From Octopus sinensis (lineage: Eukaryota): a stretch of DNA of 64,000 nt. The notes beneath the pieces are model-generated. The model searched no databases. It saw nothing but the letters and a program-made list of their open reading frames with translations, and was not told where the DNA came from. Every line of letters starts with the position of its first letter. The stretch's first letter is position 1. Below, piece after piece: positions 3,931-63,938 of this stretch. Where the stretch lies: positions 207,864,903-207,928,902 of the forward strand of contig NC_042998.1 of NCBI RefSeq assembly GCF_006345805.1. Reading direction: 5' to 3'. A program made the translations under genes and the position numbers.

Positions 3931-5464
3931 AGTTTCACGGGGAATTTTCTTTACTTTTTGGCCTTTCATTTTATCCATTTAATTTTCCCACTTTTTTTCT
4001 ATCACTCTTTACTCTCCTTTTACTCTCCTTTTACTTGTTGCAGTCAATTGACTGCGGCCATGCTGGAGCACCACCTTTAGTCGAGAAAATCGACCTCAGG
4101 ACTTATTCTTTGTAAGCCTAGTACTTAACTTATTCTACTTATTCTATCGGTCTCTTTTGCCAAACCGCTAGGTTACGGGGACGTAAACACGCTACCATCG
4201 GTTGTCAAACGATGTTGGGGTGGGGCGGGGGTGGGGCAAAGACAGACACAAAAACACACACACATATACATATAATATATACGACGGGCTTCTTTCAGTT
4301 TCCTTCTACCAAATCCACTCACAGGGCTTTGGTCGACCCGAGGCTATAGTAGTAGAAACTTGCCCAAAGTGCCACGCAGTGGGACTGAACCCGGAACCAT
4401 GTGATTGGTAAGCAAGCTACTTACCACACAGCCACTTACATGACTATGTAAATGAACAATCTGTGTGATTATTGTAATGGTTTACAAATGTATACAGTGA
4501 GTGTCTCTGACCTAGATGTCAGGAAGGCACTCGGCAAGAAAAGGAAACAGAATTGAAAGAAGATGATAATGAAAGTCATAACAACAACAACAACAACAAC
4601 AACAATGATAATAATAATTAACGGAACCCATAACAAAACCAAGCAAAAGAACGGCGCATTGATAGATACTATAAATACTTTAAATATTATAAAATAGTTG
4701 ATTTAGGATTTACGCACACACACACAAACACACACACACACACACACACACCACACACACACACACACACACACTACTATGCAACACTCTTCCAAAATCA
4801 TACAAGAATAAACTCATACCGTAAATACCCAATAAAACCCACATGTGCCAAAGAAGGCCAATACTCGACAGAAGAACATAACCTGCGCTATACAAACAAC
4901 AGACAATGTAAAAACTAATACAACCGAAGACTCAAACAAAACCCCACAACAAAAAAGAAAATTCAGCCCGCACCGGTGCAAAGGTGCAACAAATGATGCA
5001 ATAGAAAGTTGCTCGAAACTTTCAAATGTTAACAACAAACAATATGAGAACAAATATCCGCCAAATGTAAATAATGTAAATAAGGTTCCTCATCTCTTAA
5101 ATACGTATAGAACTGTATTAAGGAAAATAGTTGTTAGTATGAAGCGAGGAACCTGGGGCAGTTAACCACTTCATTTACTTCATCGCTAAATCTGAACGCA
5201 TTCAAATGTGCAATCAACAGCTGTATCTAATCGAACTATATCTTTTTATGTTTTACTTGTTTCAGTCAATTGACTGCGACCATGCTGGGGCACCGCCTTG
5301 AAGGGTTTCAGTCGAAAAAATCGACTTGTTATTTTTTGAAGCCTCTTTTGCTAAACTGCTAAGTAACAGGGACGTAAACACACCCTCACTGGTTGCCAAG
5401 CGGTGGTGGGGTACAAACGCAGACACAGAGACACAGACATACACACACATACACGCACACGCAT

Positions 5465-57526: not shown

Positions 57527-58048
57527 GGTTATAAAATGAGAAAGGGGTTGAAAATTCAACCCACCATGGGATAATATATATCCAATATACTGCCAGATAG
57601 GTACCCAACAAGATTAATATATAGATGTTAAAAATTGTCAAACAATCAGTTCATCTATTGTATTATATGGGTAAAGGTAATAATATTACCGTAAATTAAT
57701 ACTACAAATTAGAGAATGGAGAAACATACTTAATCAATAAAACATCAACTATCCGATGATACCCAATCAATACTTTAATACACCATTACATATGAGTAAA
57801 GGCATTATATAAATGAGATATACAGTAATAGTAAAAAGATAAAGAGATATAAGTAAAAAATTTTCAATATAATATGCAATTTGAAAATTTTTTACTTATA
57901 TCTCTTTATCTTTTTACTATTACTGTATATCTCATTTTATATAATGCCTTTACTCATATGTAATGGTGTATTAAAGTATTGATTGGGTATCATCGGATAG
58001 TTGATGTTTTATTGATTTAAGTATGTTTCTCCATTCTCTAATTTTGTA

Positions 58049-60190: not shown

Positions 60191-60641
60191 TATAAACAAC
60201 TTATAAGAAAGGGCTAAAGAAGGTTATTCCAAAGCCAATATACTGATTTTCCACATATAATCCACTTGCTATAGAAAAATTGAACTGAAGTCGGGCAAAC
60301 TAACCGTTAGAATATTTAAATTTCGTAAGTATCTTACTTATATTCTCTCGTAAGCTCTACCGATGAAGAATAAATCCTTTATGAGATTAATTCCGAAATT
60401 GATTCAATATAGAGATAACGAAATTTAATTATTCTAACGGTTAGTTTTGCCCGACTTCAGTTCAATTTTTCTGTAGCAAGTGGATTATATGTGGAAAATC
60501 AGTATATTGGCTTGGAATAATCTTTAGCCTTTGCTTATAAGTTGTTTATAATTTTAACCGTAAAGGTATTTTTTAATATGCTGTCACATTTCTTGATGGA
60601 ATTCTTTTCTGTAGAGAAAAAAACTTCATCCTATATTAGTA

Positions 60642-62134: not shown

Positions 62135-62221
<87 letters not shown>

Positions 62222-62593
62222 CGGGGGGACCCAGTCGATTTGATCGATCTCAATACGAAACTGGTACTTAATTTATCGACCCCGAAAGGATGAAAGGCAA
62301 AGTAGACCTCGGCCGAATTTGAACTCAGAACATAATGACATACGAAATACCTATTTCTTTATTACCCACAAGGGGCTAAACACAGAGGGGACAAACAAGG
62401 ACAGACAAACGGATTAAGTCGATTATATCGACCCCAGTGCGTAACTGGTACTTATTTAATCGACTCCGAAAGGATGAAAGGCAAAGTCGACCTCGGCCGA
62501 ATTTGATCTCTGAACGTAACGGCAGACGAAATACCGCTAAGCATCGGGCCGGCGTGCTAACGTTTCTGCCAGTTCGCCGCCTTATACATATAT

Positions 62594-62901: not shown

Positions 62902-63529
62902 CACCATTTACCGTAGATCTAACCAGAAGAATGAACATAACCTATATGCATTATTTACATTATTTACATTTGACGAATATTTGTCCTCATCTTGTTTGTT
63001 GTTAACACAACGTTTCCAGACTTCATCAGGGATGAAGTTAAAATAACAGACAGAGAACACCACTGGAAAATACGAAAACTAAAAGAAGCAACACATATGC
63101 TAGGACACAACAACCTCCTAAGCAGACCGAGTACAGATATGAGTTGCATATGGGAAACGGTTTTAAGGAAGGATAGGAAAATATTAGATTTATAAGCCCT
63201 GAAATTCACACCATAATTTCCCACGGGCAAATGGCGTAGTGGTTAAGAACGCGGGCTACTAACCTCAAGATTCAGAGTTTGACCGTATTATTATTATTAT
63301 TATCAATAATAATAATAATAATAATAATAATAGCATCGAAAATACCTTAGGAATGAGAACCCAGGTTCGAAATTTCCCCAAGACACCTGATGAAGGCTGG
63401 AGGGTATATCAGCCGAAACGTTGTGTTAACAACAAACAAGATGAGGACAAATATCTGTCAAATGTAAATAATGTAAATAATGCAGATAGGTTATGTTCAT
63501 TCTTCTGGCTAGATCTACGGTAAATGGTG
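62902..63529 (+). mobile_element. Penelope-like element 3' remnant: GIY-YIG C-terminus, tRNA-like segment, hammerhead motif, inverted terminal copy
   Basis: DEVKITDREHHWKIRKLKEATHM..NLLSRPS..IWETVL*; motif GACAC-CTGATGA-A-GGCTG/CAGCC-GAAAC-GTT-GTGTT at 63382-63427; 62902-63016 is the reverse complement of 63415-63529. Confidence 0.85.
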
Positions 63530-63938
63530 CACCCTTAACGTAGTTCTCGGGGATATTCAGCGTGACACAGAGAGTGACAAGGCCGGCCCTTTGAAATGCA
63601 GGTACAACAGAAACAGGAAGTAAGAATGAGAGAAAGTTGTGGTGAAAGAGTACAGCAGGGATCACCACCATCCCCTGCCGGAGCCTCGTGGAGCTTTTAG
63701 ATGTTTTCGCTCAATAAACACTCACAACGCCCGGTCTGGGAATCGAAAGCGCGATCCTATGACCGCGTGTCCGCTGCCCTAACCAATGGGCCATTGCGCC
63801 TCCACTAATGTCACATAATATTATAAAACAGTATTATCCACAATCCAGATTATTTAACAGCCGTAATTTCAGCAGTGAAAAATATCGCCGTTTATAATTA
63901 TGTACCGGACGCTTGCTTTGTTTGTTTGTTTGTTTGTT

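Follow-up and report, generated by a model that had tools for sequence, protein, structure and literature searches.

A tRNA-derived sequence in the terminal repeat (pLTR) of a Penelope/Poseidon retrotransposon of Octopus sinensis probably serves as an internal Pol III promoter, from which the RNA of the element would start about 13 nt upstream of the A box, at position -6. This sequence, here called the head, is a constitutive part of the family. The locus in question lies in a window of 64,000 nucleotides (contig NC_042998.1, positions 207,864,903 to 207,928,902 of the forward strand) of a 2.72 Gb genome, and is a dead, two-armed, 5'-truncated insertion of the retrotransposon. Positions in the element are numbered from the first base of the head (+1), which is position 63225 of the window.

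Architecture of the insertion

The insertion is bounded by an inverted repeat of 115 nt with 97% identity (62902-63016 and 63415-63529). The initial annotation had described the 5' side as an inverted copy of the 3' end that includes a deleted anti-hammerhead, and the arms are indeed paired in this way, with 15 nt missing from stem II in the left arm, but the outermost 47 nt of each arm (62902-62948 on the minus strand and its inverted twin, 63483-63529, on the plus strand) are non-element sequence. Non-element sequence is shared in this insertion only, that is, in 1 of 84 inverted pairs, which rules out fold-back copying into the target as the general origin of inverted arms; a second flagged pair shares ORF sequence. 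The remainder of the left arm (62949-63030, minus strand) contains the 3' part of the pLTR, which starts at RT start site 1 and reaches into the hammerhead. It meets the 3' end of the Penelope/Poseidon ORF (63029-63195, plus strand; last 54 codons and stop) with an overlap of 2 nt, GG at 63029-63030, and not at the GATGAAG junction that had been proposed.

All further parts are on the plus strand. The ORF is followed by a short spacer (63196-63224), which holds the inferred transcription start (-6, at 63219) and leads into a near-palindrome from -7 to +5. In the head (63225-63284), the A box (63232-63242) is intact and the B box is damaged: in comparison with an intact copy, it has lost about 13 nt and carries a C>T change. 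Most other copies have an undamaged B box. The family has a G at position -6, and this copy has a T. After the head comes an (ATT)n/(AAT)n tract (63286-63333), of which (AAT)n is a family-wide feature that is often interrupted by other repeats, and the (ATT) part was absent from the other copies displayed. The next ORF frame begins with the first ATG at 63353 and runs to 63482, spanning the hammerhead; its extension in full-length copies leads into the RT. The putative minimal type I hammerhead (63382-63427), with a predicted cut after 63422 at a GUU triplet and with helix III almost absent, was read from the sequence and has an architecture like that in PMC4209133, as far as that source was available. 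The 3' part of the pLTR (63428-63482) extends to RT start site 1, and other copies have a site 2 some 30 nt beyond it. The ORF stop, the A box, the degenerate B box, the AT-rich tract and the hammerhead are thus all located where the initial annotation had placed them. Scans of the window with Rfam called no hammerhead and no tRNA, ARAGORN called no tRNA gene in it, and the 54-aa ORF end gave no match to Pfam. The window copy is an inverted pair of which one arm reached the ORF and the other stopped within the hammerhead.

Other repeats were observed in the window. The right-hand 47 nt adjoin a different, abundant tRNA-headed SINE (63527-63803, minus strand); since 19 other copies of this SINE extend past 63527, the one here is truncated at the border of the Penelope insertion. 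A short piece of the Penelope pLTR, from its 3' side, is located at 5027-5115, another repeat in two tandem partial copies (136 nt at 82%) at 62216-62535, and MITE-like, near-perfect long hairpins at 57732-58017 (82 nt at 100%) and 60232-60513 (68 nt at 99%). In five loci elsewhere (L221, L065, L075, L181 and L254), a repeat of about 500 bp bounded by (AAT)n was found inside the (AAT)n tract of the pLTR; the ends of Dong/R4-like ORFs likewise abut (AAT)n tracts.

The element belongs to the Penelope/Poseidon group

As placed by similarity ranks, the element is a Penelope/Poseidon PLE with a single ORF for a reverse transcriptase and, C-terminally, a GIY-YIG endonuclease. The ORF end in the window (63031-63192, with the stop at 63195) aligns with the C-terminal end of a full-length protein with RT and endonuclease (26 of 50 residues, E 7e-17). 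The previous designation of this position as a GIY-YIG stop is correct as to the endonuclease C-terminus and the stop, but the GIY-YIG motif itself is found only in longer copies, outside the window. In the family, the ORF frame opens within the terminal repeat, upstream of the hammerhead, and continues through the RT to the endonuclease, with continuity from the N- to the C-terminus in two copies (L318 and L300). Pfam identified RVT_1 matches and no GIY-YIG match in the family ORF, and the endonuclease region aligns with an anole protein (E 7e-21). A 432-aa piece of the ORF has 138 longer relatives, including an anole protein with 42% identity over 91% of the piece, which is not necessarily the Poseidon protein of Anolis carolinensis (PAc) itself. 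As in other PLEs, the pLTRs are in partial tandem or inverted arrangement with an optional tail of 30-40 bp, and they carry a predicted minimal type I hammerhead, whose core and helices were read from the sequence; a common variant of the core sits at the free position 7.

Two related groups were observed. A second group of PLE-like loci (L349-L378) has 3' regions rich in T and lacks A/B boxes; its open frames in the hit list reach 766 aa, and it was possibly active recently. In two other organisms (L209:2599 and 2707, runs X19 and X20), a subfamily was found whose head differs and whose hammerhead core is changed at its free position 7.

A tRNA-derived head in all scorable copies

The intact head shares 41-43 identities in 63 nt with tRNA genes of the same genome (z about 7, 300 shuffles). 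Among the seven isotypes compared, the highest scores were obtained for Asn (53), Lys (52) and Thr (52), with Asn, Lys, Thr and Arg spanning 51-53. Both an A box and a B box are present, as in tRNA-derived SINEs, with an A preceding the B box in place of the G of tRNA genes. The head does not fold as a cloverleaf, and neither ARAGORN nor Rfam called it a tRNA. As for tRNA genes themselves, a tandem tRNA-Cys array with 7 genes in 3 kb was noted at L272, and a cluster of tRNA-Asn-type matches near 42.0 Mb on contig C18.

The head was retained in all 29 scorable loci anchored on a 20-mer just before it (the first 30 of 926, of which 1 was masked). A family in which other copies lacked the tRNA-like segment would have pointed to a one-off SINE insertion; that origin of the head is ruled out, as the head is fixed across family copies. 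In the first 70 of 568 loci anchored on the head, the hammerhead module follows on the same strand within 500 nt in 56 loci and further on in another 5, and it is present only in the inverted arm in 4 and absent in 5. The suggestion that the tRNA-like segment and the hammerhead occur together is thus borne out in 61 of the 70 copies, where both are on one strand. The bridge from the ORF stop to the head was also recovered in contigs from four runs of four other organisms.

The 5' ends of copies pile up at the head

Exact 20-mers were counted in the genome 104 times for the 5' part of the ORF, 926 times just before the head, 4938 times in the head and 11590 times after the hammerhead. In 55 of 70 head copies (the first 70 of 568), the 5' end falls at -26 to +9, and in 48 of these 70 at -10 to +9, as compared to an expectation for -26 to +9 of 8% or 12%, calculated from the upstream and downstream truncation rates of 0.24% and 0.38% per nt. 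A start at the head is also a property of tRNA-derived SINEs. Of the 70 copies, 5 end at +1. For the 55 copies that start at the head, the partner arm ends at the head in 12 and elsewhere in 24, and no partner arm is located nearby in 19. Among 30 loci anchored after the hammerhead, from whose head-start count L190 was left out as a false match, 16 are cut before the head is reached, 11 start at the head and 3 run on; hence, 11 of the 14 copies that reach the head stop there.

The same boundary is seen in ORF-bearing copies. Direct same-direction joints of an ORF-5' fragment to the head numbered 16 among 267 head copies, and their starts, as read by eye, are at -5 to -7, often with a few extra bases, in 9, at about -2 to +7 in 4 and inside the head in 3. 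In 90 of the 104 matches to the ORF-5' part, 7 copies start at the head, 1 starts at -17 and 2 run into an upstream ORF, with the remainder ending inside the head (5) or after it (52), or having no adjoining repeat called (23). Position -6 is a G preceded by a T, located 13 nt upstream of the A box, a spacing that we take to fit a type 2 Pol III start. The near-palindrome ends at -7, exactly where the 5' ends pile up; two cDNA ends could pair there with -13.4 kcal/mol, and the hairpin of a single cDNA strand has -2.8 kcal/mol. In three raw RNA-seq runs from one study, the two strands are covered equally and starts do not pile up; the step in depth at the head mirrors the DNA copies, and strand-switch joints were recovered at -7 to +4 in the three runs.

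Two 3' end sites and inverted pairs

The 3' ends are sharp at two sites 30 nt apart. The 112 listed flanks past the long end have no common continuation beyond a few bases, except in rare copies that run on into the ORF. In 63 of 84 inverted pairs, one end is at site 1 and the opposite end at site 2, as expected from the anole element, for which the available parts of PMC11167929 report that both DNA strands are cut and extended and that the RT starts at two internal sites. According to the same source, the first 172 nt of the ORF and about 55 nt beyond the RT start sites are required, and insertion proceeds without hammerhead cleavage.

Solo units are the main product and not a separate SINE lineage

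Solo units that run from head to tail had been anticipated and are the main product of the family. They number thousands, look like SINEs, keep the A and B boxes, end at the RT start sites and outnumber ORF-linked units by about 5 to 1. The variant mix is alike in 71 head-started and 86 ORF-linked arms, with counts of 39/39 versus 34/32 at +64 and of 49/13 versus 28/15 at position 7 of the hammerhead. No diagnostic substitution was found between the 71 and the 86 arms, and only gap columns gave P <0.01. Because both classes contain the same subfamily variants, the solo units in this sample are not a separate SINE lineage, and no non-coding master lineage of their own was recovered in it. Head-to-tail hammerhead arrays like those of non-LTR retrozymes were not found; the copies are dispersed, single or inverted, and dimers carry ORF fragments.

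Non-autonomous offspring exist but are rare. Two small deletion derivatives, consisting of a pLTR, about 125 nt of ORF and a second pLTR piece, were inserted anew with an unchanged junction between differing flanks, one at 3 places in contig C24 (L456-L458) and the other at 4 in contig C27 (L460-L464), each within a single contig of chromosome size. A further three junctions that recur are simple duplications.

The initial annotation had proposed a self-contained, SINE-like unit mobilised by a PLE. Such solo units from head to tail are present, but we consider them to be the terminal repeat of an autonomous element and not a self-contained SINE, because ORF-5' copies start at the same head, no substitution separates the two classes, and solo copies are without the downstream stretch on which the anole protein depends.

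A deficit of Pol III terminators

A column majority sequence of 2.64 kb (sense strand) was built from about 330 aligned pieces. It contains no T4 run, as compared to 4.8 expected by base shuffle (P 0.01) and 2.3 by dinucleotide shuffle (P 0.08). If TVTTT and T4 are both counted as minimal Pol III terminators, the shortest signals being those given in the available part of PMC8466645, there is a single motif versus 8.9 by base shuffle (reached in 0 of 1500 shuffles) and 5.1 by dinucleotide shuffle (P 0.023). The equivalent G, C and A motifs have no deficit, although G4 runs are also absent from the element. The codon-shuffle P for T4 is 0.10 (446 stop-free codons), and T4 alone is borderline (P 0.08-0.10, dinucleotide and codon shuffles). 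The test is one trial, as the family is a single ancestral sequence. Individual copies contain 0.45 T4 per kb, versus 2.64 in 20 hand-picked ORF segments of other retroelements with equal T content, and 13.6 kb of control ORFs from other retroelements have 59 motifs versus 59.2 expected, that is, no deficit. The second PLE family, which is T-richer, contains 137 T4 in 18.3 kb (7.5 per kb), and none of 30 of its loci has an A/B box within 700 nt of the end of the frame.

The lone motif in the octopus element is TCTTT, located 83-87 nt past the tail. In 17 of 90 ORF fragments joined to a downstream pLTR piece (L379-L468), the 3' end is at N76-89, beside the TCTTT at N83-87, and most of these ends fall a few bases before it. 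A second cluster of 3' ends at N119-135 comprises 21 of the 90, several of them related, and has no terminator. The re-copied derivative L456-L458 has a shared T4 between the head and the junction.

A model for transcription and copying

In the model that we favor, Pol III would make an RNA with the order head, (AAT)n, hammerhead and ORF. The element protein would cut the DNA and prime at two internal sites, one for each DNA end, as the anole protein does, and reverse transcription would proceed to the 5' terminus of the RNA. If primed in the first repeat, it would yield SINE-looking solo units of about 290 bp, and if primed in the second repeat of a read-through RNA, ORF-bearing, 5'-truncated copies such as the one in the window; two cDNAs would then be joined head to head. 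The solo units are predicted to be mostly dead ends, and the hammerhead is probably dispensable for copying. More tentatively, and with somewhat less than an even chance of being right, the whole element might be transcribed by Pol III from a captured tRNA promoter into an uncapped coding RNA of 2.6 kb that has been purged of terminators, with the leaky TCTTT, which lies some 85 nt beyond the RT start sites, splitting the output into a short, SINE-like template RNA and a full mRNA, so that one element would be both the enzyme source and its own SINE.

An alternative is that the head is a passenger, left in the 3' UTR by an old insertion of a tRNA or a SINE, with transcription by Pol II or by read-through, and that the near-palindrome causes the pile-up by stopping the cDNA or by annealing two cDNAs. 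The palindrome does coincide with the pile-up, both of its central forms are found at junctions, cDNA ends can dimerise, and studied PLEs have pLTR promoters with introns, according to the available part of PMC8557442. However, 43 of the 55 head-start ends have no symmetric partner, direct joints at which annealing of two ends is impossible also begin at -6, the hairpin of a single cDNA is weak, and the terminator deficit is left unexplained, so that we regard this explanation as unlikely. Against the Pol III reading, Pol III has been argued, in the accessible text of PMC10886601, to be too poorly processive for autonomous elements. The near-palindrome at the pile-up, the borderline result for T4 alone with G4 likewise missing, the T4 shared by L456-L458, the A before the B box and the lack of an Rfam tRNA call also speak against it.

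We find it rather improbable that the unit from head to tail is a true SINE, an independent lineage transcribed from A and B boxes of its own, with the Penelope protein re-copying it in trans. The excess of solo units with both boxes kept, the derivatives re-inserted at 3 and 4 places, and the precedent of Sm-alpha for Pol III combined with a hammerhead, as far as its description was available, would agree with this. Against it, the 71 and 86 arms differ in gap columns only, solo copies stop at the RT start sites, beyond which the anole protein needs about 55 nt according to the portion of its description available, and the re-copied derivatives all carry about 125 nt of the ORF. Cleavage of a longer RNA by RNase P at a tRNA-like structure, with the head as a processing signal, could account for the ends at +1, but many ends retain -7 to -1, and a head that adopts no cloverleaf and is called by neither ARAGORN nor Rfam makes such a role very doubtful indeed. 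A Pol III start at -6 is the reading that we consider likely.

Comparison with known systems

The closest counterpart is PAc (PMC11167929, as partly available), which has the same single ORF for an RT and a C-terminal endonuclease, starting inside a pLTR with a hammerhead in it. In PAc as in the octopus element, the two 3' end sites are separated by about 30 nt, and both DNA ends are extended. The available parts of that paper mention neither a tRNA-derived head nor a Pol III promoter in PAc, and say of its promoter that it is probably within the pLTR. The Schistosoma repeats Sm-alpha and Sj-alpha (PMC6765202, PMC2770079; both available in part) have the same order of a tRNA-derived Pol III promoter and a hammerhead in a high-copy repeat, but they are non-coding tandem repeats with an active canonical hammerhead, whereas the octopus module is the terminal repeat of a coding element, with a minimal hammerhead and dispersed copies that are often inverted pairs. 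Similarly, the TRIMp3 elements Cassandra, Helenus and Ajax have a Pol III promoter derived from a small RNA in their terminal repeat, but these are non-autonomous LTR elements of <1.3 kb, whose autonomous partners are held to require Pol II (PMC10886601).

Non-autonomous units derived from PLEs are already known (PMC8557442, PMC7229834, bioRxiv 10.64898/2026.07.22.740005; partial texts). The non-LTR retrozymes, short units with a hammerhead, are related to PLE pLTRs and are presumed to be mobilised by PLE enzymes (PMC7229834; bioRxiv 10.64898/2026.07.22.740005, as far as available); they differ in being defined as tandem arrays, and the words promoter and tRNA have 0 occurrences in the obtainable text of the bioRxiv paper. 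No coding PLE with a tRNA-derived promoter was found in the open literature, covered mostly as titles and the opening lines of abstracts.

Implications

The accepted view is that retroelements encoding proteins depend on Pol II or on host read-through, and that a Pol III promoter marks a non-coding parasite. If the reading is true, this division between Pol II and Pol III would be broken by a Penelope element that codes for protein and has a tRNA promoter, cap-independent translation of a Pol III RNA would be implied, and a direct path would be shown by which an autonomous element gives rise to repeats like SINEs and Sm-alpha. A testable start site is thereby fixed for a PLE transcript. In the accessible part of an octopus repeat annotation (PMC13282606), Penelope families are given and hammerheads are not mentioned. 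Many repeats annotated as SINEs in the O. sinensis genome may be solo Penelope ends.
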